NCBI GenBank assembly: GCA_037481775.1
Contig: JBBFKZ010000003.1
Location: forward strand, 1 to 64,000
Length of the DNA: 64,000 bases
Source: Candidatus Bathyarchaeia archaeon
GTDB taxonomy: Archaea > Thermoproteota > Bathyarchaeia > Bathyarchaeales > Bathycorpusculaceae
Direction: 5' to 3'
Positions 35,619-64,000 of this stretch are shown here, piece by piece; positions within the stretch are counted from its first letter, which is position 1; each line of letters starts with the position of its first letter. Made by a program: the position numbers and the translations under genes. Under the pieces are notes generated by a model. That model was not told where the DNA came from and ran no database searches. It worked only from the letters and a program-made list of their open reading frames with translations.

Positions 35619-35731
35619 GTGACTCTTTCCAACAAGTTGTATAGAGTTTTGTGCATTTAAAAGGTAGACACCGAAGCCTAACACTGAACCATCATCCAAA
35701 CTTCGATACTTCACTGGTGTGAAGTTCAACG

Positions 35732-37127: not shown

Positions 37128-37207
37128 TCAGCGTTGATGACACAGTTTTATTAGAGTCATATCTCATAATTATGTTTTGCGTAAAATAATGAAAGGAGAA
37201 AAGGAAG

Positions 37208-42170: not shown

Positions 42171-42194
42171 TTTGGCGTTTTCACCTCCCCTTTT

Positions 42195-42446
42195 TTAGCT
42201 GTTTGTGATTGTCCAGGACTCGGAAAGGCTGGGTGTGTCGTCTCCTGTTTTTCCAGTGCCGAGAAGCACCGTTTCCGACCACGCTGGAACATCTTCGAAC
42301 TTTGACGTGTCGCCTAAAACGATCTGTTCTTGAGGCGTTGGCTTGTCGCCTATGCTTCCGCGCATGTAAGCTATGAAGCCGCCTTCCTGTCCCATGTTCC
42401 AGCTGTTGGCTTTTCCCTCAAATCCTCTCACAACTTCAACGGGCAT
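42195..42446 (-). CDS. Small hypothetical viral protein
   Basis: In the tail operon, with GAAGGTGA upstream. Confidence 0.6.
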   Translation of the reverse strand: MPVEVVRGFEGKANSWNMGQEGGFIAYMRGSIGDKPTPQEQIVLGDTSKFEDVPAWSETVLLGTGKTGDDTPSLSESWTITNS

Positions 42447-42456
42447 GGTGTCACCT

Positions 42457-44559: not shown

Positions 44560-45343
44560 CTGCGAAAAAGTAGCTCCGCGCCTGATTCTTGGTGATGGCG
44601 AATTTGATTTTGCTCAGCTGGCTCCAGTCAACCGCGTCGTAGTCTGCGAATTGGGTTTTGTGGATGCGGATTCTACGCCACTCATCAGCCGCAGCCAACT
44701 CAGCTATAAAATCATAATAAGCTTCGTTCTCGCCTTCTTGGACGGTTACAACCGCGCTGCTGATGGCTGCGACATCGTTTATCAGGAAGGCGAAGCTTAT
44801 CCAGTCAAAGTCTTCAAGGTTGAATGTGTCCACAGGCTCATAAGCCACGTTTAATTCTTCGTCTGCTTCGGCGTCGTGGCTGACTTTAAGGCAGCCTCTA
44901 CCCTCGAAAGGCAATGGCTGGCTTTCGGCTATAGTTACAGACGCGCCTTCCGTGGCGGTGAACCAGCTTGTTATGGCGTCGCATGCGTTAACCTGTTTGA
45001 ACATGCTTTCTTTTAGCGTGAGGCTGTAGCGGAGAAAGTTGAAGCCTGTTTTGGCGAGTTTTACTTCTCGTATGAAAACTACTGTTTGCGCCACGTCACA
45101 GTCCATTTTTAGGCTTTGTCCAAGCTGGCAGACGCGTTGTAGCTGTCTGAAATCGTTGAATCTTGAAGGCCCTGTCAGAACTCCTGAAAGCTGTATTTCT
45201 GTTGCGTGTTCGCCGAGGTCTTGGGTGCTGCTGCCTCTTGCAGCTGGCAAATCCACGTCTTCAAACCGTTTAGAGTTGGAAAAGTTGAAGTCGGCTACTA
45301 TGCCAAGGTTTAGGTTGCCAAGCGTTACAGTCAAAGCTTTCAC
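44534..45343 (-). CDS. Distal tail (Dit/GpU-like) protein with carbohydrate-binding-like domain
   Basis: Follows tape measure; QDLG...IQLSG motif; C-terminal WRRIRI...F...VDWSQL...VDD domain. Confidence 0.55.
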   Translation of the reverse strand: MKALTVTLGNLNLGIVADFNFSNSKRFEDVDLPAARGSSTQDLGEHATEIQLSGVLTGPSRFNDFRQLQRVCQLGQSLKMDCDVAQTVVFIREVKLAKTGFNFLRYSLTLKESMFKQVNACDAITSWFTATEGASVTIAESQPLPFEGRGCLKVSHDAEADEELNVAYEPVDTFNLEDFDWISFAFLINDVAAISSAVVTVQEGENEAYYDFIAELAAADEWRRIRIHKTQFADYDAVDWSQLSKIKFAITKNQARSYFFAVDDMGGYE

Positions 45344-47025: not shown

Positions 47026-47194
47026 TCACTTTTGCCTCTTGCCCATTCCAGCCAAGCAGCCAAGAAGCCTATTTGGAAAGGCGTTAAACCTGCGATGTAT
47101 TCAAGCGGGTAGCCGTATTCATGGGCTATCAAGCCAATGAGTTGGGCTTCACTGTTGGCGTCGATCCATTCTATGGCGGAGTCTGCTGTTGGGC
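47022..47194 (-). CDS. gpT-like extension of the tail assembly chaperone, reached by -1 frameshift
   Basis: The -1 frame after T TTT TTA (47195-47201) reads SPTADSAIEW...IAHEYGYPLEYIAGLTPFQIGFL...KSE*, with its stop overlapping the tape measure ATG. Confidence 0.8.
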
Positions 47195-47551
47195 TAAAAA
47201 ACGCGGAAACACCTGTGACAGGCGAGTGGCAAGTATGGCTTTTACGTGGAAAGGTAAAGCTTCAAATTCTTCCCAGGAAAGGTCTGGCTCTGCTTTCCGC
47301 AGCATGGCATGGATTACGCGGTAAAACTTCTCCTCATTGTCTTCAACGGTTTCAAGATTTAAGGCTTTAAACTCTTTCCACGTTAAGAGCCCATACCTGA
47401 TCTCGCCAAGCTCCTGGTCGTATATTGTGTGGATTTTGCGTGTGTCTTCAGCCAATGCTTTAGGATCGAAACGCTTCGCTTTCTCTGCCTTTTCCGCTTC
47501 GTAGGCTTCAAGCTGCCGCCTGTACTCGGCGATTTTGCCCTGTTCAGCCAA
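47171..47551 (-). CDS. Tail assembly chaperone (gpG-like)
   Basis: Between tail tube and tape measure; slippery heptamer near the 3' end. Confidence 0.8.
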   Translation of the reverse strand: MAEQGKIAEYRRQLEAYEAEKAEKAKRFDPKALAEDTRKIHTIYDQELGEIRYGLLTWKEFKALNLETVEDNEEKFYRVIHAMLRKAEPDLSWEEFEALPFHVKAILATRLSQVFPRFLAQQQTPP

Positions 47552-47574: not shown

Positions 47575-47979
47575 CTATCCTTGTTCTTCTATGGTTTCGA
47601 GCAGCAGGTCGTCGCCTTCGCCTTCCATGCTCTGCATAACTACGCCTGTAGGCTTCTGGTCAAGCTTCCACTTGGTGAAAATCACGTTTTTCACTGTTAT
47701 CTTCGGGTTTCCAGCAACATCGCCAGCAGGGTCCAGCTCAATGTCCACAGGGCTTCCAGCTTTAACGGTTTCCGCGTAAGCGTTGTCCACGTACATGGCT
47801 TCAATGCTGACCTTGTAGCTTTGGTTTCCAATAGCCAAAAACGCGGGTTTCTCGCTGTTTAACGCGTATTCCTTGATCAAGTCTATGTCAATGTTTATGC
47901 CTACGCCTTTAGCGTAGCCAATTTCCGTTTCGCCTTTCTTAACTACGCCTTTTCTGCCCAACACCGGCGTTGAACTCAA
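47575..47979 (-). CDS. Major tail tube protein
   Basis: 134-aa beta-rich protein in the canonical position; no sheath gene nearby. Confidence 0.7.
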   Translation of the reverse strand: MSSTPVLGRKGVVKKGETEIGYAKGVGINIDIDLIKEYALNSEKPAFLAIGNQSYKVSIEAMYVDNAYAETVKAGSPVDIELDPAGDVAGNPKITVKNVIFTKWKLDQKPTGVVMQSMEGEGDDLLLETIEEQG

Positions 47980-48056: not shown

Positions 48057-48488
48057 CTAAGCCTTAACCGTCACCTCGCAGCGGAGCACAAGCCTTGCTG
48101 CGGCTATTACCTGCGAGACTTTGCCCCAGTCTGTGCCAACCGTCATGGTTTCACCTTCCATGCTTGCCGCTTGGCTGCCGCGGACTAAGCCGCCGAGCGT
48201 TGGGTCCTCAGCTAAAACTTGTTTGGCTCTTTCAATCTTGTCCATGACGCTTTGCAAGGCTACGTTGTCTTCTTGCGCAGTGTCGACTATGATTATGCTC
48301 CAAGTGTGTTGCCAAACCTCGTTGGCGAAGGTTTCCTGCTGCACTGGTCCGCCGTTCCAAACTGCATAGCAGAAAGGCGTCTGGTTTCGCGTGTAAGGCG
48401 GGCCGAAAAAGAAGTTGGCTTCTGGAATGCCCAATTCATTGTCAGCCTTTAAGAGGTTGAGGATTTTCTGGGTGATTTCCTTCAGCAC
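48057..48488 (-). CDS. Tail terminator/completion protein
   Basis: Position after the gp10-like gene; L..DPTLGGLV motif. Confidence 0.7.
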   Translation of the reverse strand: MLKEITQKILNLLKADNELGIPEANFFFGPPYTRNQTPFCYAVWNGGPVQQETFANEVWQHTWSIIIVDTAQEDNVALQSVMDKIERAKQVLAEDPTLGGLVRGSQAASMEGETMTVGTDWGKVSQVIAAARLVLRCEVTVKA

Positions 48489-48491
48489 TTT

Positions 48492-48695
48492 TCAATGCCT
48501 CTTGGATTTTTGTATCATTTCCATGATGGCTATGCGGTTGCGCACAGCCGTGTTAATATCGTCCAAAACGATTTCCTGCATCCACAAGGGCATACGCAAA
48601 ATCCTTGTACCAAGCTGCTCCCACATGCGCATCCATTTTTGGCGCAATGCAGACTCTCTGCCCCAACCTTCTAAAACTGTGACTTCAGCCATCAA
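48492..48695 (-). CDS. Small hypothetical viral protein
   Basis: Start overlaps the upstream stop; fills the operon gap. Confidence 0.55.
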   Translation of the reverse strand: MMAEVTVLEGWGRESALRQKWMRMWEQLGTRILRMPLWMQEIVLDDINTAVRNRIAIMEMIQKSKRH

Positions 48696-49141
48696 ACTTC
48701 ACCGTAGAAAAGTTGACAGTAAAGATTCAACACCAGCTCCTGAAGCTTTGGCAAACATTCTTCACTTGTGCTTTTAACGAAAAATCTTCCTGGAAAGCCT
48801 GGATGTTGCACTCTTTTGGCGAAGACTGCTTGTCCATCTATCTCGAAGGCTAAAATCGAAGCTTGGACAGGCTCGATGATGTGGGGTCTTGTGCCAAACT
48901 CAACGTAAGGTGCATAGGGGGCTGTGGAACCAACTTCGACAGTGTCTCCGCTTTTGTGGATTATTATGCTATCGCGTAGATAGCCTGTGCGGATTGGAGC
49001 TTTCATGCGCATGGTTTCAGCTATTAGGCTGCTGCTTCTGTCCAAAAACTCGTCAAACACTTTGGGCGCTTCACGTTTCACTCGCTCAACCCATTTTTGG
49101 AAGGGGTCCATGTCAAAGTCAACTTCAACCGAAACGGGCAT
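48692..49141 (-). CDS. HK97 gp10-like neck/tail-completion protein
   Basis: APIRTGYLRDSI, YAPYVEFGTRPH, HPG..GRFF motifs. Confidence 0.88.
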   Translation of the reverse strand: MPVSVEVDFDMDPFQKWVERVKREAPKVFDEFLDRSSSLIAETMRMKAPIRTGYLRDSIIIHKSGDTVEVGSTAPYAPYVEFGTRPHIIEPVQASILAFEIDGQAVFAKRVQHPGFPGRFFVKSTSEECLPKLQELVLNLYCQLFYGEV

Positions 49142-49142
49142 T

Positions 49143-49508
49143 TTAGGGGCCCTCCAGCAGGGTTATGCCGGCGCGTTTTCTGCGGTGGATAAAGTCGCGT
49201 ACTTGCTGTTTCAGGAACTCAAGCTGGGCGATTTTCTCCGCCGGCCCGTGAAAGGTTAGCTGTCCAAGGTTTACGCTCCAGCCTGTTGCACCTGAGCCTG
49301 TAACTTTCAAGTAGCAATATACAGCCGCGAGGTTCGCGACAGCGTTGGCTTCAGAAGGCGAACAGTCTTCAGCGTTGATGGTTTCGCCTGTTTCCTCGCT
49401 TAAGAAAGCGGCAGCCTCATCCCTAAACGCGAGGGCATCTTCATCGCTTATGTCCGCAGTTGTCAAGCCTAAACGTTTACGAATTTGGTCTGCTGTAACC
49501 GCCGCCAT
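49143..49508 (-). CDS. Head-tail adaptor (gp6/gp15-like)
   Basis: Helical ~120-aa protein (VTADQIRKRLGL...ISDE) leading the neck operon. Confidence 0.65.
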   Translation of the reverse strand: MAAVTADQIRKRLGLTTADISDEDALAFRDEAAAFLSEETGETINAEDCSPSEANAVANLAAVYCYLKVTGSGATGWSVNLGQLTFHGPAEKIAQLEFLKQQVRDFIHRRKRAGITLLEGP

Positions 49509-49551
49509 ATGCTTGTTCAACTAAAATAAGCGTTTAAAGTGGTTAAAAAGG

Positions 49552-50795: not shown

Positions 50796-51236
50796 ATGGC
50801 GAGAGGAAAACCTTGGACTGAAGAGGAGATTGCGGTTTTGGACGAGCTTGCCAGTCAAGGCTTGTCTCCTCAGCAAATTTATGAAAGTGGAAGGCTTCCG
50901 GAAAGAACCGTTGACGCTATAAGGAAACAGCTTAAACTTTGCTCTATAGTTCAAACTAAGCACACGGCAATAGTTCAAACTATTGAGCCAGCAGAAGACG
51001 CTTTAAGCATGGAAATGGTTGTCAAGCTTTTCAGCACAGCTTTTAAGCAAATCTGCGAACTGCAACAGGTTGACAAACTCACGCTTGAAAGGTTTCGCAT
51101 AATTTTCCAAGCCGCCAAGGACTATGGGCCTCTTCTGAGCAGCTTTCAAAAGTGGGAGGAAATTGAAAAGCGTGTGGAAGAGCTTGCTGCTGCTGTTGCG
51201 GAATTACAGGCAGCGAAGAGCGCTAAGAAAGCTTGA
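50796..51236 (+). CDS. Putative terminase small subunit
   Basis: N-terminal WTEEE...RT.DAIR Myb/HTH-like motif and coiled-coil tail, directly upstream of TerL. Confidence 0.6.
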   Translation: MARGKPWTEEEIAVLDELASQGLSPQQIYESGRLPERTVDAIRKQLKLCSIVQTKHTAIVQTIEPAEDALSMEMVVKLFSTAFKQICELQQVDKLTLERFRIIFQAAKDYGPLLSSFQKWEEIEKRVEELAAAVAELQAAKSAKKA

Positions 51237-52554
51237 GGAAACCGAGCACGCTGTTAGGCGAATGCTAAGGGAAGAAGAGGTTGAAGTAAAGGACGCCGTA
51301 GATTTTGCAGTTAAAGTTTTAGGCATAACGCCTTTCGACTATCAGGCACGGCTTTTGTTGGACGATAATAAGCGCATTGTCGCGTGCATGGGAAGGCAGA
51401 CAGGCAAAACCACGACGATAGCCATGAAAGCCATATACTTCGCAGACACAAACCCAAATGTTACTGTTCTGATTACAAGCCCAAGTCTACGCCAAAGCAT
51501 GATAATGTTCGACCGCATAGCCACATTCGTCTATTCCACACCACGCTTAAGAAACAAGATTGTAAGGGCTACAAGAACGCTGATTCATCTTGAAAATGGC
51601 AGCCGCATAATAGCTTTGCCATGCAGCGAAAACCTGTTGAGAGGATATACGGCGCAGATGGTTATTTGTGATGAAGCCTCATTCATGCCTGAAGAGGTTA
51701 TAACGCAAGTGATTTTTCCGATGTTGAGCACAACGGACGGCTACGCCATTTTTCTAAGCACGCCTTGGGGTAAGGACCATTTCTTTTACAGAGCCTTTGT
51801 CAATCCAGCCTACAGCGTGCATAAAGTAAAGTCTGAACAATGCCCATTGATTAAGCCCGAGTTTCTCGAGGAGATGAAAGCCAATATGACTAAAGAAGCC
51901 TACTTGATGGAGTATGAAGCAGAGTTTGTCGAAGCCCTGAACAGCTATTTCCCACAAGATTTAATCCGAAAATGTGTTGAATTAGCCCAAAAATTAGGCG
52001 TTGAGCTTTACGGAAGCCTTGAAGCAACCTTTCCAACAGGAGACTATTATGCCGGAGTGGATTTCGGCAAGCTGCAAGATTATAGCGTTATCACAGTTTT
52101 GAAGCGTGAAGGCGACATCCTCAAACTTGTTTATCTTTACCAGTTTCCACTCGAAACACCGTACACGCAAGTTATAGGACATTTAGTAAGAGCCCATCAG
52201 AAATTCAAATTTAGGAAAGCGCTCGTGGATCAAACAGGCGTAGGCGAGCCTGTTCTCGATGAAATCCGCAACCAAGGCTTAAACAATGTTGAAGGACTAA
52301 AGTTTACGGTTCAAACAAAAGAGGAGCTGCTATCGAATTTGAAGATTGCTATGGAGCAGAATCGCTTGGCGATACCGTATCATAGGCAACTGTGCACGCA
52401 AATAAACGAGCAACAATACGCATACAGCAAAAGCGGACACCTACAATTCAGCCACCCAATAAACAGCCATGACGACATGCTATGGTCATTAGCCTTAAGC
52501 ACTTATGCGTCAAGAGAACCGCCAAGAAAAGAACCAACCTTCACTTTCGGGTAA
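51163..52554 (+). CDS. terL: Terminase large subunit
   Basis: GRQTGKTT, LRG, ICDEA, LSTP.G, GVDFG, VDQTGVG, HDD; the true start is probably somewhat downstream. Confidence 0.95.
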   Translation: MKSVWKSLLLLLRNYRQRRALRKLEETEHAVRRMLREEEVEVKDAVDFAVKVLGITPFDYQARLLLDDNKRIVACMGRQTGKTTTIAMKAIYFADTNPNVTVLITSPSLRQSMIMFDRIATFVYSTPRLRNKIVRATRTLIHLENGSRIIALPCSENLLRGYTAQMVICDEASFMPEEVITQVIFPMLSTTDGYAIFLSTPWGKDHFFYRAFVNPAYSVHKVKSEQCPLIKPEFLEEMKANMTKEAYLMEYEAEFVEALNSYFPQDLIRKCVELAQKLGVELYGSLEATFPTGDYYAGVDFGKLQDYSVITVLKREGDILKLVYLYQFPLETPYTQVIGHLVRAHQKFKFRKALVDQTGVGEPVLDEIRNQGLNNVEGLKFTVQTKEELLSNLKIAMEQNRLAIPYHRQLCTQINEQQYAYSKSGHLQFSHPINSHDDMLWSLALSTYASREPPRKEPTFTFG

Positions 52555-52753: not shown

Positions 52754-53731
52754 TCAATCAGGTAGTCGCTGGGGAACCGATTTTTGGAATAACTCGTTCA
52801 ATTTCTCAATTTGTTCATTGCACAATTGTTTTTTGGCAAGATGATTAATCCAGAACTCGTATTTGCACCCATATATTCTTACTATAACTCCATTTAGACA
52901 TTTTGCTTCCTCCTGTGAGAACAATTCATTAACAATTGAGGCAAAACATTCGATGCTAACATCCAATATTTGGCAGTCAATAACCCAAAAGATTGGGCTG
53001 TAAGATTTAAACTGCTTCTGCTTTTTATCGCTAAAGAAGTTCTCGAATACTTTTTTCCGTACAGGTTCCATCAGAATCTTAAATGAGCTTAAGGTTGCGT
53101 CTTCTGTTCTTTTGGTTTTAGCAGATGCGTTCTCTGTTATCTCTATTTTAATGTGATGAGTACCTACGTCGCGTTTTAGCGTGTCTATTGCCTCTTTGTC
53201 AACAGGATATGAATAAGAACCGGTTTCTTTGGCACTAATTTTGCTTTTAATGAATTTTATTAGATTGTCTGCTTCTTTGTCTATCCATTCATAGTCAAGC
53301 GTTCCAAAGTCTATCTTAACAATAAAATCCGATTCTATCTTCCCTATTTCTTTCCATACACGACGTATTGCATCACTTTTCAGTAGCTTCAATAGCGTTT
53401 CTACTTCAAAGAATACGTCTTCACCAACAATGTTTACCTTAATATCTGGGGTTGAAAAACCCTTCCTCTCAATAAGGAACTTGGGATTTAGATTTAGCTT
53501 CTTCAATTTTTCTGCAAATACAAGTTCGGAAAGATAACTTTCCCAATTATTGCCGTCTTTTCTCAATCTGTCAATTTTATTTTTGAAATTTGGTATGCCA
53601 CCAAGCTCAGCAAACAAGTTTTCAACGTAATCCATGGACGCTGGACAGTCATAAAAGTGAACTAATAATGGATGGTTCTTATCAAAAGTGTCCAAATATT
53701 TCTTAAGAAGGGCATGATTCCCAAAGTCCAT
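52754..53731 (-). CDS. AT-rich hypothetical protein with PD-(D/E)XK-like motif
   Basis: SEL...TPDI...FEV; the expected Lys position reads Glu. Confidence 0.55.
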   Translation of the reverse strand: MDFGNHALLKKYLDTFDKNHPLLVHFYDCPASMDYVENLFAELGGIPNFKNKIDRLRKDGNNWESYLSELVFAEKLKKLNLNPKFLIERKGFSTPDIKVNIVGEDVFFEVETLLKLLKSDAIRRVWKEIGKIESDFIVKIDFGTLDYEWIDKEADNLIKFIKSKISAKETGSYSYPVDKEAIDTLKRDVGTHHIKIEITENASAKTKRTEDATLSSFKILMEPVRKKVFENFFSDKKQKQFKSYSPIFWVIDCQILDVSIECFASIVNELFSQEEAKCLNGVIVRIYGCKYEFWINHLAKKQLCNEQIEKLNELFQKSVPQRLPD

Positions 53732-53884
53732 TCGTCTTCTTTGTATAGTTTGTATTAGGAATAAATATTAGTTGTGGTAGGAATAAAAATACTTCAGTAT
53801 AGCCAGAAAAACATGAAGTCTAAACATGGATTCAGACTTCACAAACAATAAGAGTTCTAAAGCGAAAAAGAAGATGAAAGAGCC

Positions 53885-54670
53885 ATGAAAATTTATAAAA
53901 AAATCCTTTTCGCCAACTTCATGGCTTTTCTTACAATAATGTTATATTTCATAAGTATAGGGATTCCACGTTCAACATTTGATACTTATGAATATAACTA
54001 TATTGAACATTCGACAACAACACCTTTATCTAATGAAGCTACAATAACTAAGAAAGACTTTAACCTAACTTATGTTAAATGGATTAGTTTTTGGAAACTC
54101 GAAGGTTCTACATACGGAAGTTTGGGTATTCATTACAACATTACTTTTTTGTGGAATAACCCATTCGGATTTAATGTCAGTGTAGACATTGAAACAAGCT
54201 ATAATCCGCAAAATGGGGCAAGTTATAGCGTGCAACATGGTGTTTATGTTAATGGCACACAGTTAAACCGCTCTTCGCTTATCAATGTTCAGCCACTTGA
54301 AACAATAAAGATTGACTACTATGACGCTGTAGAATGGTTCAATCTGGAATCCCTCAACGATACCGAAACCCTTAACAGGGAATTAAAGGTCTCTGAAGAA
54401 GGTATAATTGAAGGTGCGCAACTACGCTTTATATTTCCAAAAGAAAATTGGCAAACAGTTTTAACAAAATATCCGCAGTCATTTTCAACAAAAACAGATA
54501 CTTGGACCGAAACAGAAAAAGTTTATTTGGGTTGTCTTTTCCATCCCGAAATCTTCATTGAATTCTTAAAGAATGGCTTACTTTATAGCGTCATCGTTAT
54601 TGCTATGATTTGGCTTTCAGCATTCATATACTTTCAAATCAAAACCTTCTATAATTGGGCTAAGAGTTGA
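53885..54670 (+). CDS. AT-rich membrane protein with large extracellular loop
   Basis: N- and C-terminal TM segments; many NxS/T sequons. Confidence 0.65.
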   Translation: MKIYKKILFANFMAFLTIMLYFISIGIPRSTFDTYEYNYIEHSTTTPLSNEATITKKDFNLTYVKWISFWKLEGSTYGSLGIHYNITFLWNNPFGFNVSVDIETSYNPQNGASYSVQHGVYVNGTQLNRSSLINVQPLETIKIDYYDAVEWFNLESLNDTETLNRELKVSEEGIIEGAQLRFIFPKENWQTVLTKYPQSFSTKTDTWTETEKVYLGCLFHPEIFIEFLKNGLLYSVIVIAMIWLSAFIYFQIKTFYNWAKS

Positions 54671-54876
54671 GTGAAATGGAGAGAGAAATGATTTGTGATT
54701 GTCAACTTGAAGACAGGACTTGCGAGGATGTAAAAGAGGATAATGAACGAAATGGAAAATATTCTATAAGAATGCAGTTTGGATGCAGGAACGAAAATAA
54801 AAACATCTGTTGTCGCTTTTGCAAAATAGAAGATTGCAAAATTAAATGTATAAAGATTAAACAAAACTTAACATAA
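54667..54876 (+). CDS. Small Cys-rich protein
   Basis: CDC...C...GC...CCRFC...C...C; overlaps the upstream stop. Confidence 0.45.
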   Translation: MSEMEREMICDCQLEDRTCEDVKEDNERNGKYSIRMQFGCRNENKNICCRFCKIEDCKIKCIKIKQNLT

Positions 54877-55293
54877 AAAGGAACCAACTAACGAAAAGGT
54901 TAAGATAGAAATCATTTTGCTCAATCGGGTTTTAACCAATCCCAATAACGTAAGCATTACATTCCATTTTTAATTTCGTCTTCATGTATGATTATTCTTG
55001 TAAAGCTTGTGTGCAATTAAATCCAATCGGTTGAAGTATTTCAAAGTCGATATAGCATGCTTTTTCAACTACTTTTCAAAATGCAACACGCCCACTATGG
55101 TTTTTTCTCCATTCCATTTCTTCTTTCCACTTTTCCCTTTCGAACTTTATTCTACTTCTCGTTGAAAGGTATTGAAAAACTCCAATAATAGTCGAACCTA
55201 ACAAGATAGCTATTTCAACTTCCATTTTTTCACCTCTACTGTCTGCATCATTTATAAGAACGGAAAAAGTTTTCTGTTTTTCTGCTCAGTCCA

Positions 55294-55548
55294 TTAGACT
55301 TGTTTGCTAACTATGTTTTCGCTTATTTCTTCTAAACGTCTTGCTACTTCAACACCTTTGCCGGTTAGCCTGTTTATTCTTCTTGGTGCTATGAATTGGC
55401 TTTCAATCAAGCCTTCCGAATGTAGGGCGTTTATCATTTCGCTGCACCATTGTTCTGTTATGCCTGCTCTTTTGGCTATTTCGCTGTTTTGTAATGGTCC
55501 CTTCTCGAGCAGTATGACCAGAATCTTCTGTTTAACTGTAAGGAACAT
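55294..55548 (-). CDS. Winged-HTH (MarR-like) regulator
   Basis: SEIAKRAGIT...L..EGLI...RLT.KG. Confidence 0.8.
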   Translation of the reverse strand: MFLTVKQKILVILLEKGPLQNSEIAKRAGITEQWCSEMINALHSEGLIESQFIAPRRINRLTGKGVEVARRLEEISENIVSKQV

Positions 55549-55633
55549 GCCTTATCTATGATATTTTTGTTTAGTTTTTAATGATAAACCCTTCTGAAAC
55601 TTTAATTTAAAATAGCGTTTAAGGCATTAGATA

Positions 55634-55933
55634 GTGTTGGGTGTTGGTTTGGAGGATGAAGAGGTTTTCGCGTTAGAGTTTGAGTTGAAGCCGAGGCTTT
55701 TGGCGACGGTGCTTTGGGGGTTAGGCGTTGGAACATGGTTTCTAACAGTTTACGCTATGCTAATTTGGCATGGATGGATCGGCAATGTTGAGGATGCGCT
55801 TTTTGTGCTTGTGAGTTTCATTTGCGGCTTAAACGCCATGGCGATGGGCTTCCTCATAGACATGCATTCGATGGAGTATAAAGGAGTCAGGTTTGGTATT
55901 CGAAGGAGAAAACGGGGAAAGAAAGAGGGATAA
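55634..55933 (+). CDS. Small two-TM membrane protein
   Basis: Two hydrophobic helices and a basic tail. Confidence 0.55.
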   Translation: MLGVGLEDEEVFALEFELKPRLLATVLWGLGVGTWFLTVYAMLIWHGWIGNVEDALFVLVSFICGLNAMAMGFLIDMHSMEYKGVRFGIRRRKRGKKEG

Positions 55934-55958: not shown

Positions 55959-56843
55959 CTACGTTATGCCTGTGATTTCGCATATGGCTGTTGGTCTCTT
56001 AATGCGGGGAACCACGGCTTCGTAGACCCGAAAGTGGTGGTTCATGTCGACGGTTTGCATATAGAAGGTTTTTAGGTCTTGGGCTACGCACAGGTCTGCG
56101 TTTTCCGCTCCGCTTTTGATTAGTATTGCGCTGTCTGTTCCGCCGTCAGCCGCCTTAAGCTGGCTGCTTATGTAGATGTTGCCTTGAATAAGCTCCTTGA
56201 TTTTCTCGATTTGGCTTATGCCCGTATTCGCTATAAGCGTGTGAGCATCCATGAAGGCGCTTGGCTGCACAATCAAATCGTAAGGAGGCGGATAATACTT
56301 GTCAAGCAGTTTTTTGGCTGCCGCCCGTACATCGTTTAATGCGTTCGGAGCTGTTGCCCATGCGCCGCCGCTTGCCTGCGTCTGCCTTCCCGTGGCGGTT
56401 GTTAATCCTTCTATGCCAAGCATGGGTTCGCCAGAGATTTCGCCGTTAAGGATTAGGCGATCTTCTTTCTGAGCCACAACGAGGGCTGCTGATTCCGCGT
56501 TTGCCGTGTCCAATGGTGTTCCAAACCGCCTTGAAGCTTCCAAGTCTCGCCAGTGTATGCGGAAGTCTTTGTGCAGTATTGGCACTGTGAGGCTTTTGCG
56601 TGTGTAGATTATTGTGTCTTCTGCTGGCGTTTCGCCGTACATGCTGATGTGCGCTGCGCTCATTTCTGATAGCTCGTCCCAATCCACGGTCATGACGCCT
56701 ACGCCTGCAAGCTGTTTAACTGGCAAGACACGACGTCCAACCAAGACTGGCTGAGCAGCTCTGACCACAGCCTCGTCAAGCTGTTTCCACTCCTCTTCAC
56801 GCAATGGTGCCTGTGCTCTTCCAACAAGCGTTAACGGGTCCAT
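55959..56843 (-). CDS. Major capsid protein of family 1 encapsulin (Linocin M18/EncA) type
   Basis: APLREEEW, LVGRR, PILHKDF.IHWRDLEA, PLD..A..AA..VAQKED.LI..G, MNH.FRV.EA...RIK.P.AIC; only capsid candidate in the cluster. Confidence 0.9.
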   Translation of the reverse strand: MDPLTLVGRAQAPLREEEWKQLDEAVVRAAQPVLVGRRVLPVKQLAGVGVMTVDWDELSEMSAAHISMYGETPAEDTIIYTRKSLTVPILHKDFRIHWRDLEASRRFGTPLDTANAESAALVVAQKEDRLILNGEISGEPMLGIEGLTTATGRQTQASGGAWATAPNALNDVRAAAKKLLDKYYPPPYDLIVQPSAFMDAHTLIANTGISQIEKIKELIQGNIYISSQLKAADGGTDSAILIKSGAENADLCVAQDLKTFYMQTVDMNHHFRVYEAVVPRIKRPTAICEITGIT

Positions 56844-56845
56844 TT

Positions 56846-57355
56846 CTAAATCACCAACCTAACCATAATCGACTTGTCAGCAGCAGAGGCATCAACACTT
56901 TCCTCTGCGTAGGCTACGATTGGTCCGTAAGGCGGGATGCTGCCGATTTCCAAGAGGTCTGGCTGAGCAGCGGTAGACGTTACTTGCGTGGCTCCTGAAG
57001 GGACGCTTACGGATATTGTAGCTGCAGCCTTCAATTTTCCGTTTGCAGCACAAACCAGCGATGCACCTTTAACAACGTTGTTTCCGCTTGCCAAAGTGGC
57101 TACCACAACCGCAGGCGCCTTCAACACACGAACTGGATGCTTATCTGGAAAGGCATTTGCAATCGGATATCTTGGGTCTGCGTCCAGAATGCCTAAGGGC
57201 TTTTGTTCTCCGTCGCCTGCAAGCGTTACTTGATGGTCGGCTGTGCCTTTCTTAACGAACAGTCCTGGCTTGCATGATGTGCCTTCGGTTATTAGCTCTT
57301 CAACGATGGGTGAGCCGCCAACCAAAATCTTGTTAGAAGGTTTAACGAACGGCAT
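56846..57355 (-). CDS. Capsid decoration/cement-like protein
   Basis: Directly upstream of the capsid gene; beta-clip-like (VVKGASLV...NG.L...IVAYA.E). Confidence 0.65.
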   Translation of the reverse strand: MPFVKPSNKILVGGSPIVEELITEGTSCKPGLFVKKGTADHQVTLAGDGEQKPLGILDADPRYPIANAFPDKHPVRVLKAPAVVVATLASGNNVVKGASLVCAANGKLKAAATISVSVPSGATQVTSTAAQPDLLEIGSIPPYGPIVAYAEESVDASAADKSIMVRLVI

Positions 57356-57362: not shown

Positions 57363-57713
57363 TCACTGCTCCTTCTTGTGGTATAAGCAGCCAACCGTCA
57401 GCCTGTTTTCATCTTCGCTTGTGGTTGCCCCAGCACTGCGAACATTTTTCACCGTGCCTTTAACGCTGTCAACGCCTTTCTGGACGAGCCTAAGCTGTGC
57501 AAGATCCAGCTTCTCAAGTTCATCCTTTGAAAGAATAGTCTTCTCTAAAATGGATTTGATTGCAGCTTCCCTTTCCTTTTCAACATAAGCAGTCAATGTT
57601 TTGGTGGCTTCAGTCATCGTTGTCTTGAGCTTCTCGTTCTCAGCCTCAAGCTCCGCAATCCTCGCCTTTAACGTTTCAACGGTTTCTGTTGGCTTTTCTT
57701 CACTCATATTCAT
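57363..57713 (-). CDS. Coiled-coil scaffold protein with C-terminal encapsulin cargo-loading-like peptide
   Basis: LKARIAELEAENEKLK coiled coil, low-complexity linker, then LTVGCL (57384-57401). Confidence 0.75.
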   Translation of the reverse strand: MNMSEEKPTETVETLKARIAELEAENEKLKTTMTEATKTLTAYVEKEREAAIKSILEKTILSKDELEKLDLAQLRLVQKGVDSVKGTVKNVRSAGATTSEDENRLTVGCLYHKKEQ

Positions 57714-58119: not shown

Positions 58120-58566
58120 ATGGCTGAAAAAGTTTCTTTAGATTCGGATGAAGTGTTTGAGGCTATCTCGCACCCTTTAAGGATAAAAATATTGAAAGCG
58201 CTCGCTAAGACACCACTCGGTTTTAGTGAGCTCAAGCGGGCAATTAATGTTGAAAGTAGTGGCGCCTTAGATTTTCATCTCAAAAAGATGCAAAGTCTGA
58301 TTGAAACAGACTCAGCTGGTCGATACATTTTAAACGCTAAAGGATCTGCTGCACTGGAAGCCATACGCGTCATCCAGCAATATGGGTGGCAAAGGCGCTC
58401 TTTTTTATTGAACGTTCTCGCTTATGTGCTTGTCAACATCTGGACGCTAATTAACTTCTCTTTAAGCTTAAATTCCATCATCGTGTTTGTCGGATCAACA
58501 CTTTGGATGGCATTCTATTCTTATTGGACGTTTATCTACAGGCGGGTTTCTTTAAGACAAAAGTAA
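58120..58566 (+). CDS. ArsR-type wHTH protein with C-terminal TM helices
   Basis: FEAISHPLRIKIL...FSELK...SSG.LDFHLKK followed by two TMs. Confidence 0.8.
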   Translation: MAEKVSLDSDEVFEAISHPLRIKILKALAKTPLGFSELKRAINVESSGALDFHLKKMQSLIETDSAGRYILNAKGSAALEAIRVIQQYGWQRRSFLLNVLAYVLVNIWTLINFSLSLNSIIVFVGSTLWMAFYSYWTFIYRRVSLRQK

Positions 58567-58595: not shown

Positions 58596-59819
58596 TTAGG
58601 TTGTTCCCTTTAATTGGCTGACAAGAGCGCTCACGTTTGCTATTAGGCTGTCTGCTGATTCGTAGCCTTCAAGCTGCTTTTTGATGTTTTCTGGTAGGGC
58701 TTTGGCTTCTGGCAGTTCTGGGTTATAGCGAACTGTTATGCCATGTTGGAGTGCACGTTTTACTATGCGTTCGTAGATTGTGTTGCGTTCTGGTTGTGTG
58801 TATTCTTGTCTAAATTGGCTCCAGCGGGCTAAGGCGTTTCTGCATCGGTCTTCTGGCACAAGCGGATAAGCGTAATTCACGGGGTCAGCGTAGTCTTCTT
58901 CATTCTGTGGATAATCTTTCGGCGGAGTTAGATGTCCTTTGTCTTCTCGGAATTTTATGCCGTGCTTCTTTTCTCGCTCTTCTGCAGCCTTACGCAGTTT
59001 TTCTCTTTCGCTCTCTTCTTGCTTCTTCTCGGCTGTGTCGCCTTCTTCTCTTGTTGCTGGTTCAAAGTTTCCGCCGTGGTCTTGGCAGTGTTTGCGGGCT
59101 TCAGCTTCACTCCATGTTTTAACTGGATAGCGGTAGGCTTGCTCAACCGAGCCAGCTTCAAGCTTGTCCTTCGGTTTGCCAAAAATGACGCGGTAGCTTT
59201 TGCCGTTGTGTTCTCGTTCGCCGCTGCCCACTATGTTTAGTTTTTCCGGGTCTTTTAGGCGACAGCTGTGCTCGTTTGGGTAAGGGTCTGCGCCCTTAAG
59301 CGTGTCCACGCCTATTCCACAGAGCGGGTAGCTGCATCTTCCCTGCCAGCTTCCAACAGCCACATGGTCGATGAGAATATCTTTTTTCACATATTCGTAG
59401 TGTTGCCCGTTCCACTCGCCCTGTTGTGGAATGCACTCAAAGAAGAAGCCTATGCTCACGCTTCTCGCTTTGCCAGTTTTAATGTCTTCAAGGTATTGGG
59501 GGCTGCAGCGGTTTTTGAAGAAAGCCAACTCAGCTTTTATGCGGTCCTTCTCGAATTTGGCGTTGCGCACTGTCCCGCGGATAAGCCCGGGCTTAGAAAG
59601 GATTATTTCTGGCGGGTGCTCCTCAACAACCCAAGCGTTCAAAGCTGTGAAAGCTGCCTTCTCAACTTCTTCTGCAGGTTCGTAGATGAGCATGCCATCA
59701 TAATCGTAAACGCCTTCGCGGGTGATCACCGCTGGCACGGTAAGCGTTTCCGCGTCTTCTCTGATTTGGAGGCTGTCGGCTTCAACGCTTTTCACGCCGT
59801 ACTTCAGCATGGCAGTCAC
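58596..59819 (-). CDS. Prohead protease (DUF2213-like) with C-terminal extra domains
   Basis: REGVYDY, HP, VSIGF, GEW.G..Y, DHVAV...GRC; then PYPNEHSCRL and YADPVNYAYPL modules. Confidence 0.8.
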   Translation of the reverse strand: MTAMLKYGVKSVEADSLQIREDAETLTVPAVITREGVYDYDGMLIYEPAEEVEKAAFTALNAWVVEEHPPEIILSKPGLIRGTVRNAKFEKDRIKAELAFFKNRCSPQYLEDIKTGKARSVSIGFFFECIPQQGEWNGQHYEYVKKDILIDHVAVGSWQGRCSYPLCGIGVDTLKGADPYPNEHSCRLKDPEKLNIVGSGEREHNGKSYRVIFGKPKDKLEAGSVEQAYRYPVKTWSEAEARKHCQDHGGNFEPATREEGDTAEKKQEESEREKLRKAAEEREKKHGIKFREDKGHLTPPKDYPQNEEDYADPVNYAYPLVPEDRCRNALARWSQFRQEYTQPERNTIYERIVKRALQHGITVRYNPELPEAKALPENIKKQLEGYESADSLIANVSALVSQLKGTT

Positions 59820-60591: not shown

Positions 60592-62034
60592 TTACCGTTT
60601 TAATCCATATTCTTCAATCCAACTGTAAAAAGTTTGCTTGCCAATACCCAACTCTTTGCATATTGTGTTTACGCTTTTGCCTGTTGCTATTCTGTCTGCT
60701 AATAGTTTGTCTACGGGTTTTCCGAATTTGCGTTCTAACTCCAGTTTCCGCTTTGATGTTGCGGAGCTGATGTTTTGAGGGGTTCCGTTTTGGAGTTGGC
60801 TTAAGCCTAAGACTACGTCGGCGCCTGGAAGTCGCTCTAAACCTTCATGTTGTCTTATCTCGTTGATTGTCATCCAGTTTGTTTTTAGCGTTAGGCTGCG
60901 GGTTTTGTCGAGTTCTGCGGCTGCTTGATCCCTTGGGTTTATTTCGAATCCGCCAAGCCAGTTAATGCGGTAATGCGTGTCTGAGATTTGTTTTGTTTTT
61001 ATTAGGCGGTCGATTAGGTCCATGATGTATGGTTCGTAGCGGCTTTGGCAGTCGCTTATCTGCTTGAAGTATTCGCGTTCGTTTACTTCGCTTCCAGCTA
61101 ATTGTCCGGCTTGTGCTCCGCGTAGAATCGCCATTGGTATGCTTGTGCCTGCGCTTATGTTTTCCATTATGGGCGTGTAGTAGGGTTCTGGGTCTAAGGC
61201 TCTTCCAGCTAAGCCTTTAAACTCGATTGTGGTGTTTTCGTCTGCCCACATGCTCGTCTGAGCCGTTAACGGGCCCCATTGACGCTTGTACGCTTCGATT
61301 TCTTCTCGCGTTGCGCCTTTGACAGTTACAACAGGGAAGCCGCTGCCATAACGGTACATAGTTTGCCCCATACCCCAACGAATATTCCGCAAAACAGTTA
61401 GGTCATCCCAGACGGGTTCGAGAACGCTTATGCCTTTCCATGGATGGTCTAAGAGGCGAGTGGCGAAATGGATGACACGGCTAAAGTGAACCTCAACCTC
61501 TTCATTCTCAGCTATTTTTATCTTGTAAGTTTCTGGCAAGCCAAAGCGTGCACTCTGCCTATTCTTGTCTGTTTGAACGCTTGTTATCATTGTTGGTGCG
61601 TAGGCTTCGAGGCTCACGATTTTCTCAGGCACTAAGACTGGGTCTCTTAATGTGACACCTTTATCCTGATAGCCTAAGACGATTATGCTCCAGCCATAAG
61701 CCCGTTCAAAAACCGCCGCCTGCGTGAAAACGTCTTTAGCGTTAAGCAGAAGCAAGACTTTCTGAACAGCCTCGTTAAACTTTTCCTTGTCAACGCCTTC
61801 CTCAAGAGGCTCAACATTAAACCAGTTGTCAAAAACGTCGTGAGCCACGGCGAAGACGATGCGGTGTGCTACAGGCTCGCGTTTAATTGCAAAAGTGATA
61901 TTGTCATTGGTTAGGGGTTGACCGAACTCGGCGCCTAAACCTGTGTAAACACGCTGAATTTCAGCTTGTGCCTGAGAAGGCGCAGAGTGTATTCCAAAGA
62001 GTTTCTGGGCTAAAAGCTGCCTAACACTAACCAT
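60592..62034 (-). CDS. Portal protein (DUF1073-like) with C-terminal HTH
   Basis: RAYGWSII, RFGLPETY, VHFSRVIHF, G.SVLE, IPMAILRG.Q.G, MTINEIR...GL; ATG at 62034. Confidence 0.88.
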   Translation of the reverse strand: MVSVRQLLAQKLFGIHSAPSQAQAEIQRVYTGLGAEFGQPLTNDNITFAIKREPVAHRIVFAVAHDVFDNWFNVEPLEEGVDKEKFNEAVQKVLLLLNAKDVFTQAAVFERAYGWSIIVLGYQDKGVTLRDPVLVPEKIVSLEAYAPTMITSVQTDKNRQSARFGLPETYKIKIAENEEVEVHFSRVIHFATRLLDHPWKGISVLEPVWDDLTVLRNIRWGMGQTMYRYGSGFPVVTVKGATREEIEAYKRQWGPLTAQTSMWADENTTIEFKGLAGRALDPEPYYTPIMENISAGTSIPMAILRGAQAGQLAGSEVNEREYFKQISDCQSRYEPYIMDLIDRLIKTKQISDTHYRINWLGGFEINPRDQAAAELDKTRSLTLKTNWMTINEIRQHEGLERLPGADVVLGLSQLQNGTPQNISSATSKRKLELERKFGKPVDKLLADRIATGKSVNTICKELGIGKQTFYSWIEEYGLKR

Positions 62035-62173
62035 AGTGCTTTTCAGCCTCCGCTTTGGTTTCACGCAAAACTTGACGGATTACGTCTTGCATGCTTCGAG
62101 CCTTCCGCCTTTTCAGTTCTTTCAAGAGCCACTCGTAAAGCTCAGAATCAACGCTCTGCTGGAAAATAGGCAC
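62027..62173 (-). CDS. 48-aa ribbon-helix-helix regulator (absent from the ORF track)
   Basis: MPIFQQSVDSELYEWLLKELKRRKARSMQDVIRQVLRE...; overlaps the portal start. Confidence 0.65.
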   Translation of the reverse strand: MPIFQQSVDSELYEWLLKELKRRKARSMQDVIRQVLRETKAEAEKHYG

Positions 62174-62366: not shown

Positions 62367-63245
62367 TTATTGTGATGTTGGAGCTTTCACCATCTTTCTC
62401 AAGAAATTGTAGCTCACAGCATTTGCATGTTTCCAGACGACATCAAAAAGCGTTTCGATTTCCTTGACCAGCTTCCCCTTGGCGACAAATCCCAGTTCAA
62501 AGTTGTTATATAAAGAGTTTAGTCTAAATTCCGCTGAACCTACATAACACTTGATTCCATCCACAAGAACTAGTTTTGCATGAGTCGATTCATAATGCAT
62601 AAGTTGAGAATCGCCCAAGCGCAAATTCTCGTGAAAGTCCTTCACTGCAAAATAGCCAGAATTCCCGAAAGCACGATATATATCCCACATCCTTAAAACG
62701 GATTTTATGAGACTCATGTAGTGATAGTCTTTTTTCTGAGGGTCTAACACTTCTCGGGTCAGCAAAAAAACCTTAACTCCTGCTTTAGCTAATCTTTTCA
62801 ATTCCATAGAAAAATGAGTCACAATAGACTCTTCAGGAAAAGGCAGTGAAACTTTAACATATTCGCGAGCAGAGTTTAATAGATGATCAAACGCTATATC
62901 TGTCATAATGATCCTTTCATTTGTTGGAAGATCAGATAAAAGCGATGCAGGAATTGTAGCCACAATTTGTATGTCATCTAACGATTTTGTTTCATAGCTG
63001 AAATATATTCGATCTTTTAATATCGCTTTTTTGCTTCTTATTATTGGTTTTCTCAGTATAACAACATAATCCCGATTTTCTTTTTTGAGCTCGAGATTTT
63101 GAGAGCGAACAAGTGCCATTACCTTGAGTTCTGCAAGCGGTTGTTCTTCAACAGGGAACATCGAGAGAAGAGATCCAAGGTGTAGCTTGCCATTATTTTC
63201 CTTAAGTGTTTGAATTATCTTTGTTGCCATGCTCACGTTTACCAA
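62367..63245 (-). CDS. Phospholipase D-family nuclease (DrmC-like)
   Basis: Single HAKLVLVD...GSA...N.ELG HKD motif. Confidence 0.82.
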   Translation of the reverse strand: MVNVSMATKIIQTLKENNGKLHLGSLLSMFPVEEQPLAELKVMALVRSQNLELKKENRDYVVILRKPIIRSKKAILKDRIYFSYETKSLDDIQIVATIPASLLSDLPTNERIIMTDIAFDHLLNSAREYVKVSLPFPEESIVTHFSMELKRLAKAGVKVFLLTREVLDPQKKDYHYMSLIKSVLRMWDIYRAFGNSGYFAVKDFHENLRLGDSQLMHYESTHAKLVLVDGIKCYVGSAEFRLNSLYNNFELGFVAKGKLVKEIETLFDVVWKHANAVSYNFLRKMVKAPTSQ

Positions 63246-63265
63246 TCTTCCCTCGAGATTTTTGT

Positions 63266-64000
63266 TTAAATCTCGTTACCTGTTTGTGTTTCATAAGGTG
63301 AAATGGGTATCCCCCAGAACTTGAGTAGCAGAGTGCGACTGAGTAAATAATTCGGGAATATGTATGCATTAGGAACTTCGCTTGGAAAGAATGGATGGCA
63401 GAGGGGATCGCGAATGTAAAGACATGTGACGCAGCCATCATAACATTGATATCGGCAATCTCTCACGCGTTTCATCGATTCGTTAAGCCATCTCGTAAGC
63501 AAATCGTATGCAAGGTACTCAACTCCTCCAGCCTCAACTTGTTCTCTTTCAAATATCAAGAGAGCGCAATCATCTATGAGCACTTTTCCAACGAATGCTG
63601 ATTCCTCTAAGCCCGTTCGCAAAGAAGCTTGATACGTTAATGCATGTTCAATTGAATGTAGTAGTGTAAATAAAGGAACCGAGTACTTAAGTTCGCTTAT
63701 CGGAGCTGAAGTCAAGTATTCTTTTGTCTGATTGCTAATCCACGAGTAGACACTATCAACAGCCAATTTGCTGCCTTCCCTCAAAATTTTCAATTGTGCA
63801 CGTACATCCTTTAGAATTGCTGAACCAGGGTTTGTTCTTTCTAATCTTCTAATAATGTCTTCCAAAACAACTTCAGCTATTCTTTCCTTATCTAACTGAA
63901 CTACAAGACCTTTACCTTGACTTTGAGTCATGTACGCTCTATATTCAAACTGATTTGTGTCGGGGTTTCTTTGCTGGAAAAATCTGACCTGCACGTCTGT
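63266..64000 (-). CDS. DUF1998 (DrmB/MZB-like) domain protein, partial
   Basis: LLHSIEHAL, LLIFE...GG, CRYQCYDGCVTCL; frame is open to the window edge. Confidence 0.78.
   Translation of the reverse strand, partial: TDVQVRFFQQRNPDTNQFEYRAYMTQSQGKGLVVQLDKERIAEVVLEDIIRRLERTNPGSAILKDVRAQLKILREGSKLAVDSVYSWISNQTKEYLTSAPISELKYSVPLFTLLHSIEHALTYQASLRTGLEESAFVGKVLIDDCALLIFEREQVEAGGVEYLAYDLLTRWLNESMKRVRDCRYQCYDGCVTCLYIRDPLCHPFFPSEVPNAYIFPNYLLSRTLLLKFWGIPISPYETQTGNEI

Follow-up and report, generated by a model that had tools for sequence, protein, structure and literature searches.

An encapsulin-like major capsid protein in a tailed provirus of Bathyarchaeia and a predicted scaffold that ends in an encapsulin-type targeting peptide

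The family 1 encapsulin EncA of Myxococcus xanthus forms a T=3 shell with the cargo proteins EncB, EncC and EncD. The targeting peptide of EncC is PEKRLTVGSLRR with the core RLTVGSL (PMC10402063), and this core sits in three hydrophobic pockets of EncA with contacts to residues R28, R34, D38, D213 and D243 (PMC10402063, PMC7925596). The published evidence on how encapsulins originated and how a capsid changed into an enzyme container consists of fold similarity and mixed phylogenetic groups. A viral origin of encapsulins was argued by Andreas and Giessen (2021; PMC8346489), who cited a defective Sulfolobus provirus (Heinemann et al. 2011). Aguilar et al. (2026; PMC13669383) reported 62 viral major capsid proteins (MCPs) with encapsulin domains only and a group in which family I encapsulins are mixed with phage MCPs and an archaeal virus MCP. 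Their Structural Group 5 contains Linocin_M18 viral MCPs, such as those of a Haloarcula tailed virus and gammaproteobacterial phages, and in their analysis an archaeal virus groups with a Bathyarchaeota 'encapsulin'. Cargo and scaffold were compared by fold only (P22, phi29), with low sequence similarity and no shared peptide reported in the available part of that paper. Tailed viruses of Bathyarchaeia, some of them from hot springs, were described as 'Fuxiviridae' and 'Kunpengviridae' by Duan et al. (2024; PMC10848311); the word 'encapsulin' is absent from the available texts of that paper and of an archaeal provirus paper (PMC11705971). Here we describe an integrated provirus of a Candidatus Bathyarchaeia archaeon (GCA_037481775.1) whose capsid gene encodes a protein of the encapsulin family. 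The DNA analyzed was a stretch of 64,000 nucleotides (contig JBBFKZ010000003.1, positions 1 to 64,000), which we refer to as the window.

The capsid open reading frame (ORF) lies at 55959-56843 on the minus strand, starts with ATG and encodes 294 residues. An earlier note on this DNA had read the protein as a family 1 encapsulin that serves as the MCP of a tailed archaeal element and had described it as free of an N-terminal delta domain. The stop-to-stop frame measured only 299 residues, leaving no space for such a domain, and no fused domain was detected in the protein. Profile searches gave 175.1 bits for Pfam Linocin_M18 (PF04454; cut-off 24.3) and 210.6 bits for the NCBIfam equivalog NF041155 encap_f1, the family 1 encapsulin shell (cut-off 100). 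Viral capsid models scored far lower, with 39.6 bits for PF09950 Major_capside, 37.7 bits for DUF6260 and 78.6 bits for the PHROG family phrog_264 'major head protein'. The comparison of Linocin_M18 with viral capsid profiles that the earlier note had proposed thus came out on the encapsulin side, and these scores support membership of the protein in the family 1 encapsulin sequence family. Among solved structures the top match was M. xanthus EncA (4pt2, E 1.3e-59; HMMER), with residues 7-292 of the query aligned to residues 5-280 of the chain, and all six motif blocks listed in the earlier note were collinear with EncA in this alignment. T=4 and related shells came next (6nj8, E 2.4e-47), and T=1 encapsulin structures reached E-values of 4e-5 to 0.2 only. 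The protein was 38% identical over 285 residues to an EncA-like Myxococcaceae protein (BLASTP). EncA-type encapsulins scored 196 bits against the viral capsid protein versus 25-52 bits against T=1 encapsulins. By homology to EncA, whose fold is solved and which is 38% identical along the full length, the capsid protein has the HK97 fold.

The genes around the capsid gene are those of a virus head. Portal, protease, scaffold, cement and capsid genes follow one another in this order with terminase, neck and tail genes close by, and all of them could be assigned by Pfam, PHROGs or position, bearing out the cluster that the earlier note had drawn. The five head genes are on the minus strand. The portal (490 residues with a C-terminal helix-turn-helix (HTH); 60592-62064) matched PF06381 Phage_portal_3 at 116.8 bits and phrog_146 at 143.2 bits. 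The prohead maturation protease (407 residues, DUF2213 and DUF6582; 58596-59819) matched PF09979 at 50.4 bits and the head maturation protease families phrog_530 and phrog_2229. The scaffolding protein (116 residues; 57363-57713) is a coiled coil followed by a Gly/Ser/acidic linker; it gave coiled-coil family matches only and was assigned from its slot between the protease and the cement and capsid genes, and it is conserved in 13 related loci. The cement or decoration protein (169 residues; 56846-57355) matched Pfam Phage_cement (PF22758) at 37.5 bits and was 49-98% identical in related loci. On the plus strand at 50796-52554, a putative small terminase subunit (146 residues), assigned from its position and its conservation in related loci, is followed by the large terminase TerL (463 residues; 51163-52554), which matched phrog_2 at 163.4 bits and Pfam Terminase_6N/6C. 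In the 1.82-Mb genome there was no match to PF05065 and one match to NF041155, the capsid ORF itself, and no capsid family was detected by Pfam or PHROGs in the other large ORFs of the element, in agreement with the earlier statement that this is the only capsid candidate. A single capsid candidate within a conserved module of portal, protease, scaffold and terminase genes agrees with an HK97-fold MCP of Caudoviricetes. An encapsulin would be expected in a non-viral context and with either a fused cargo or an enzyme cargo that carries a C-terminal targeting peptide in its operon. Here the locus encodes a portal, a protease, a cement protein, TerL, neck proteins, a tail tube and a tape measure, and the sole peptide-bearing neighbor is the 116-residue coiled-coil protein, which matched no enzyme family. 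We conclude that the 294-residue protein is the viral capsid protein of a tailed archaeal provirus and not a cellular, cargo-loading, portal-less encapsulin.

The provirus is integrated next to a tRNA gene. A tyrosine integrase gene (PF00589; contig C3:75580-76767) adjoins tRNA-Arg(CCT), and a direct repeat of the tRNA 3' end was found at the far border, 41 kb off. The repeat forms the putative left attachment (att) site at 35724-35753, about 30 bp (18 exact, 3 mismatches) that repeat the 3' end of tRNA-Arg(CCT) and 12 bases past the tRNA. The partner copy lies beyond the window at contig C3:76799-76828, so that the repeat bounds an element of about 41 kb. One contig of sample run X6 matched up to 35753 and then ran on into the following 11 bases of the tRNA, the junction expected of an unoccupied site; as a single contig, this is weak evidence.

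To place the module in a wider context, close relatives of the capsid protein (73-98% identity) were collected from nine IMG/VR contigs and 11 contigs of metagenome-assembled genomes (MAGs) titled Bathyarchaeia or Bathyarchaeota (GTDB). Copies of the module at 97-98% identity were present in IMG/VR viral contigs. Wherever the contig had room, the order scaffold-cement-capsid was kept; portal and protease preceded it, and terminase and adaptor followed. For locus counts, loci that shared an identical capsid sequence were treated as one, those short of the stated upstream room were excluded, and loci without a capsid frame of at least 200 residues (including L018, L020, L021 and L022) were dropped. 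Portal and protease were found in 6 of 6 close-relative loci with at least 4.5 kb upstream, and the cement gene was found in 12 of 12 with at least 0.7 kb upstream. As the same module recurs in viral contigs and in Bathyarchaeia MAGs, the locus is not chimeric; a chimera had been named in the earlier note as one way in which its reading could fail, and the survey of genomes that it called for has removed this concern. Matches were detected in 8 of 301 genomes of the host's class and in 0 of 3 other genomes of the same genus, a patchy distribution as is expected of a gene carried by a mobile element.

A search of 1.84 billion representatives returned 1255 matches at E <=0.001. The capsid protein and its close relatives, which we call the Bathy-virus clade, formed one 50% cluster (496 bits), and the next matches started at 205 bits and about 41% identity. 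Capsid relatives at 30-45% identity formed large viral clades with co-diverging portals. In the trees these sequences fell into an outgroup of longer phage capsids that includes the isolates Hardycor1, Brevundimonas StAshley and Mannheimia 587AP2, a clade A, a clade B together with the Bathy-virus clade, a clade C and four unplaced 'X' rows. Clade C contains EncA of Myxococcaceae and proteins of Sulfurihydrogenibium, Bacillota, Jettenia, Marinithermofilum and Radiobacillus that are named encapsulins. A further group D consists of ferritin-fused proteins of 350-390 residues, which were detected in 59 other Thermoproteota genomes of 401 searched and were conserved within host families, for example in 11 of 16 and 13 of 23 genomes. 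The gene context of the clades was determined from relatives, and IMG/VR scans with subsets of clades B and A gave 42+24 and 70+18 loci, respectively. All 32 IMG/VR clade B loci with room had a portal and a protease that resemble the window's, while in clade A the portal was found in 17 and the protease in 18 of 32. In clade C neither gene was found in any of the 18 loci with room, and none of the 80 loci kept had a match to the head or tail proteins of the window. The IMG/VR scan with the clade C alignment returned no relative, and the metagenome scan with the same alignment returned 214. The identities of portal and capsid to the window proteins co-varied across 61 loci (Spearman 0.80), which makes a recent replacement of only the capsid gene less likely.

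The position of the capsid protein was assessed in a series of trees. The first tree used 172 of 207 candidate rows, after proteins shorter than 245 or longer than 400 residues were dropped and the Bathy-virus clade, 68-98% identical, was thinned to 8. A second tree was built from 92 rows picked from the 172, and a third from the same 92 and 20 of 22 archaeal fused proteins, leaving out 2 that were mis-trimmed. The resulting 112 rows were evenly thinned to 78 for a careful tree (IQ-TREE, LG+G4), with support given as ultrafast bootstrap / Shimodaira-Hasegawa-like approximate likelihood ratio test (SH-aLRT). All sampled cellular encapsulins, the bacterial EncA/IMEF-like proteins of clade C and the archaeal ferritin-fused proteins of group D, formed one clade at 100/100 that did not include the capsid protein, placing the capsid protein outside the crown of cellular encapsulins. 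Group D nested inside bacterial clade C on a long branch. Support was 100/99 for the Bathy-virus clade, 97/95 for clade B and 99/97 for clade A, and the Bathy-virus clade grouped with viral clade B at 93/97. As the outgroup and clades A and B are all viral, a single change from virus to cell would be the simplest reading of the tree. The proposal that a family 1 encapsulin serves as the MCP consequently holds for the protein family and for the role as provirus capsid, and is not supported for an encapsulin in the sense of a cellular compartment, as the protein lies outside the C+D clade.

The protein encoded upstream of cement and capsid provided a second link to encapsulins. The 116-residue scaffold ends in ...SEDENRLTVGCLYHKKEQ. 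Within this end the predicted encapsulin-type docking peptide RLTVGCL, identified from the translation, occupies residues 104-110 (57384-57404, minus strand) and is followed by YHKKEQ and the stop. This end has the features of a targeting peptide: it is C-terminal after a flexible linker, has an RLTVGSL-like core and has basic residues behind it. In the scaffolds of Bathy-viruses the end was conserved as LTVG[C/D]L[Y/F]HK. Scaffold ends of clade B included NLTVGSLYG, RLTVGSLYGK, GLTVGSLYGKKQGEQ and GLTVGDLS, and scaffolds or protease-scaffold fusions of clade A ended in LTVGEWD, LTVGRWD or GLTVGSLMGKK. In clade C the same peptide forms the end of the ferritin-like protein encoded immediately ahead of the shell protein, e.g. 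KLTVGSLLGKKQG and RLTVGSLLGQAQG, and a viral scaffold ending in LKGLTVGSLYGKKQGEQ matched a ferritin-like cargo ending in GKLTVGSLLGKKQG. When 24 scaffolds that are otherwise 19-34% identical between clades were aligned, T-V-G (T106, V107 and G108) was the only invariant stretch besides one leucine, and L110 was at least 90% conserved.

The frequency of the motif was measured by searching for [LIVMTFW]T[VIL]G.[LIMFWY] in the last 40 residues of same-strand ORFs that end no more than 1.5 kb upstream of the shell gene. The motif was detected in 10/10 loci of the Bathy-virus clade, 26/39 of clade B, 24/47 of clade A and 14/45 of encapsulin clade C, and in 0/11 loci of the outgroup phages. Among other ORFs of the same loci it was found in 19 of 11,124, and among ORFs of the host genome in 26 of 8,904, a background of about 0.2-0.3%. 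On the shell side, two of the EncA contact residues were conserved. R34 of EncA corresponds to R37 of the query and was conserved in 45 of 46 aligned sequences, and D243 corresponds to D256, which was conserved in 9/9 Bathy-virus, 6/6 clade A, 10/10 clade C and 11/21 clade B sequences. Homology of scaffold and cargo over their whole lengths was rejected, as a profile of the 24 scaffolds reached ferritin-like cargo at no more than 12.8 bits, and we claim only the peptide as shared. We found no report of a peptide shared by scaffold and cargo in the full-text literature searched; subscription reviews and supplements were outside the scope of this search, so an earlier description is possible. 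At three clade A loci from IMG/VR (L102, L156 and L157) the LTVGSL end was carried by an ORF of 416-562 residues that also matched the DUF2213 protease. In these loci protease and scaffold appear fused and would share one docking peptide.

Taken together, the data are likely explained by an integrated, tailed, siphovirus-like Bathyarchaeia provirus of about 41 kb whose MCP belongs to a large viral lineage, with the EncA/IMEF encapsulins as the cellular branch of the same protein family, a scaffold peptide that docks on the capsid, and encapsulins as a domesticated offshoot. In this best explanation the lineage consists mostly of uncultured tailed viruses that share a Phage_portal_3 portal, a DUF2213 protease, a separate coiled-coil scaffold, a cement protein and an HK97-fold capsid without a delta domain. 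The scaffold would dock on the inner face of the capsid by its C-terminal RLTVGCL peptide, at a predicted site in the pocket between N-helix and P-domain where the RLTVGSL targeting peptide binds in EncA. It would nucleate a procapsid around the portal, after which the protease would clear the interior, TerL would package the DNA and the cement protein would stabilize the expanded head. Encapsulins may have kept the shell and the peptide dock, with the docking peptide moved to ferritin-like enzymes. We infer the peptide binding, the order of assembly and the capsid size, for which T=7 would be expected at about 41 kb, as well as the direction of change from virus to encapsulin. To a more specific proposal we give about even chances: that the EncA-type targeting peptide is the inherited capsid-docking end of a viral scaffold, that this virus and clades A and B still use the peptide in procapsid assembly, and that the last dozen or so scaffold residues were grafted onto ferritin-like enzymes at domestication.

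Several of our results weigh against this explanation, and they are best considered together with the rival explanations that they favor. This virus, or clades A and B, could go back to a virus that swapped its capsid gene for a cellular family 1 encapsulin and put the targeting peptide on its scaffold, in which case the virus would descend from a compartment. Two-way traffic was argued by Aguilar et al. (2026; PMC13669383), and the capsid protein did score much higher on the curated encapsulin models than on viral capsid models. The backbone of the trees was also weak. Forcing the Bathy-virus clade together with C+D cost 3.9 log-likelihood units in the careful tree (approximately unbiased (AU) test, p 0.436), and in a quick tree the same constraint was 9.8 units better than the free topology (AU p 0.596). 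As these tests are compatible with a placement as sister to the cellular clade, we make no claim of closer kinship to clade B than to encapsulins. The evolutionary direction itself rests on the phage-capsid outgroup and on parsimony, and bacterial T=1 encapsulins, left out of all trees, were compared by PDB E-values. Clades A, B and C were labeled viral or cellular after the IMG/VR or metagenome loci of relatives and not after the context of every row, and the cellular label of clade C also rests on 6 named sequences of 30. We nevertheless consider such a recapture improbable. The capsid protein was not nested in cellular encapsulins, portal and capsid identities co-varied, no cellular encapsulin of this type was found among the 301 genomes of the class, and with clades A and B and the phage outgroup all viral, the recapture would need to be very old or repeated. 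The earlier note had left the choice between a virus that recaptured a cellular encapsulin and a viral lineage close to the encapsulin ancestor. A recent recapture is disfavored by the tree position, by the portal-capsid correlation and by the capsid type being shared by whole clades A and B; the second reading fits better, with the reservation of the AU result in the careful tree. A provirus that has become defective, its capsid gene now serving as a host nanocompartment, was proposed for the Sulfolobus solfataricus encapsulin and has its precedent cited by Andreas and Giessen (2021; PMC8346489). One related locus would suit it: L018 of a Bathyarchaeia MAG holds at 10001-10744 a capsid copy, 92% identical, that lacks the first 46 residues, and its 10 kb upstream contains unrelated genes and no portal, protease, scaffold or cement. 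L018 is probably a decayed or rearranged provirus remnant. In the window the head, neck, tail and packaging genes are all intact open frames, integrase and att-like repeats are present and no enzyme cargo adjoins the capsid gene. Together with the nearly identical modules in IMG/VR viral contigs and the missing gene in 3 of 3 other genomes of the genus, this makes a domesticated remnant very unlikely here.

The peptide argument faces a different difficulty, as the shared element is only 6-7 residues long with no wider similarity between scaffold and cargo, which leaves room for convergence on a conserved pocket. The LTVG-type end of the scaffold could be unrelated to the targeting peptide, or a matter of chance, and the scaffold could bind the capsid otherwise, as in P22 or phi29. 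The search missed the motif in 13 of 39 clade B, 23 of 47 clade A and 31 of 45 clade C loci. An LTVG end was not present in the scaffold-like proteins of Hardycor1, Brevundimonas phage StAshley and Mannheimia phage 587AP2, distant phages with Linocin-matching capsids, in keeping with its absence from the outgroup loci. Of the five contact residues of EncA, three are changed in the query (Q31 for R28, P41 for D38 and G221 for D213); D38 and D213 vary within clade C too. Coincidence would, however, have to account for a motif whose placement is shared: at the C-terminus, after a flexible linker and followed by basic residues, and, in viruses as in encapsulin operons, encoded in the same slot directly ahead of a homologous shell gene. 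The motif was enriched more than 100-fold over background, and its T-V-G is the one stretch that the otherwise diverged scaffolds hold invariant. We judge an unrelated origin of the two peptides to be unlikely.

Downstream of the neck the provirus encodes a tail module, which like the neck lies on the minus strand. The neck genes (48057-49520) encode a tail-terminator-like protein (143 residues; phrog_37, weak), an HK97-gp10-like tail completion protein (149 residues; PF04883) and a head-tail adaptor (125 residues; phrog_5) that was 56-68% identical in related loci. The tail tube protein (134 residues; 47575-47979) matched phrog_290 and Pfam Phage_tube_2 (E 1.2e-5, 25.5 bits, just under the cut-off of 27). 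A probable tail assembly chaperone at 47171-47551 matched no family and was assigned by position, with tblastn relatives in the same slot of related viral contigs. The tape measure protein (561 residues; 45340-47025) matched phrog_58 at 107.2 bits and many other tape-measure PHROGs. Three tail or baseplate proteins (223, 700 and 269 residues; 41499-45343) matched phrog_5417 and the tail protein families phrog_1887 and phrog_9983. No sheath gene was seen in the element, suggesting a siphovirus-type tail. At the distal end of the module an ABC-type ATPase fused to a GNAT acetyltransferase (40025-41473; Pfam ABC_tran and Acetyltransf_1) gave matches to mad3/mad8-like ATPases in PADLOC. A fragment resembling this fusion gene adjoins the end of the capsid gene at locus L021.

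Other genes of the element lie between and beyond these modules. A variable insert of about 3.2 kb with low GC (0.37) separates the capsid and terminase genes (about 52754-55900) and contains, at 52754-54670, two ORFs, of 325 residues and of 261 residues (a membrane protein), neither of which matched a family in Pfam or PHROGs. The gap between capsid and TerL varied from 1.7 to 4.2 kb among relatives, suggesting that this position may be a hot spot for accessory genes. An ArsR/DUF7347-type HTH protein with a membrane tail (58120-58566, plus strand; Pfam DUF7347, 49.8 bits) lies between protease and scaffold. The C-terminal HTH of the portal (residues ~458-486) also resembles HTH families of small terminases. 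Beyond the portal, DrmC (a PLD nuclease of 292 residues; PADLOC 205.6 bits) and the start of DrmB were found at 62367-64000 on the minus strand. The gene group continues past the window to about 71550 of contig C3 with DrmB at 613.2 bits and DrmA at 1032.2 bits (PADLOC), then two ORFs of no named family and a C5 cytosine methylase with DrmMII matches. The provirus thus carries a DISARM-like defence system between portal and integrase, an archaeal provirus-borne defence island. Inside the att borders and near the left one, a TrmB-type regulator and an 871-residue secreted PQQ-propeller/Ig-like protein were found at 36004-39900; an 833-residue paralogue of the latter (30693-33194) lies just outside the element. 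Assembled contigs of other samples in which the viral module is present covered positions 36.0-39.3 kb very thinly, a hint that this stretch is variable.

That viral capsids with encapsulin domains exist was already published (PMC13669383), and with 62 viral MCPs of this kind reported there a claim of near-uniqueness for this locus is overstated. What the locus adds is a complete tailed virus and, at about 38% identity between its capsid protein and a solved encapsulin, a similarity unusually close for HK97-fold proteins, as well as evidence of a broad viral lineage with a co-evolving portal. It also adds a concrete molecular link, in that viral scaffolds and encapsulin cargo carry the same predicted docking peptide at the C-terminus. 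This link makes the question of encapsulin origin approachable at the bench. If the peptide was inherited, scaffold and cargo would be 'internal proteins' that can replace each other by virtue of their sequence and not just by analogy, and the viral capsid and EncA should cross-load each other's peptides. The finding also bears on annotation. The public record of a 74% identical capsid protein of the same viral clade (P0033) is named 'family 1 encapsulin nanocompartment shell protein'. As the NF041155 equivalog labels proviral capsid genes as encapsulins, surveys of encapsulins may count proviruses as compartments. The Bathyarchaeota 'encapsulin' in published trees could be a proviral capsid of the same kind.

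Compared with described systems, the locus is closest to EncA of M. xanthus, with which its capsid protein shares 38% identity, a similar length, the lack of a delta domain and collinear motifs, and its partner protein carries a C-terminal RLTVG-x-L peptide that resembles the targeting peptide of EncC. Unlike this virus, EncA loci contain ferritin-like cargo and lack portal, protease, cement, terminase and tail genes (0/80 clade C loci). In the provirus the peptide is on a coiled-coil scaffold within a full virion module, and the capsid protein lies outside the cellular clade. Ferritin-fused encapsulins of the Pyrococcus furiosus type belong to the same Pfam/NCBIfam family but have an N-terminal ferritin-like domain, a length of 350-390 residues and only distant similarity to the query (PDB 2e0z, E 3.6e-4). 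Among viruses, the MCPs of Structural Group 5 of Aguilar et al. (PMC13669383) are likewise tailed-virus capsids that match the family 1 encapsulin profile. Comparable isolates are much more distant, the MCP of Hardycor1 being 27% identical and those of the Brevundimonas and Mannheimia phages 28-32% identical over part of their length, and none has an LTVG scaffold end. Fuxiviridae and Kunpengviridae are Bathyarchaeia viruses of the Caudoviricetes too and encode an HK97-like MCP, a portal, TerL and a tail tube, but in their described gene order TerL is next to the portal, which is not the case here (PMC10848311). The encapsulin gene of Sulfolobus solfataricus resembles the capsid gene of this provirus in being an archaeal shell gene of the family 1 type with viral genomic surroundings (PMC8346489). 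Whereas the Sulfolobus element was described as defective and transitional (PMC8346489), the Bathyarchaeia provirus has a complete and conserved virion module with relatives in viral contigs.

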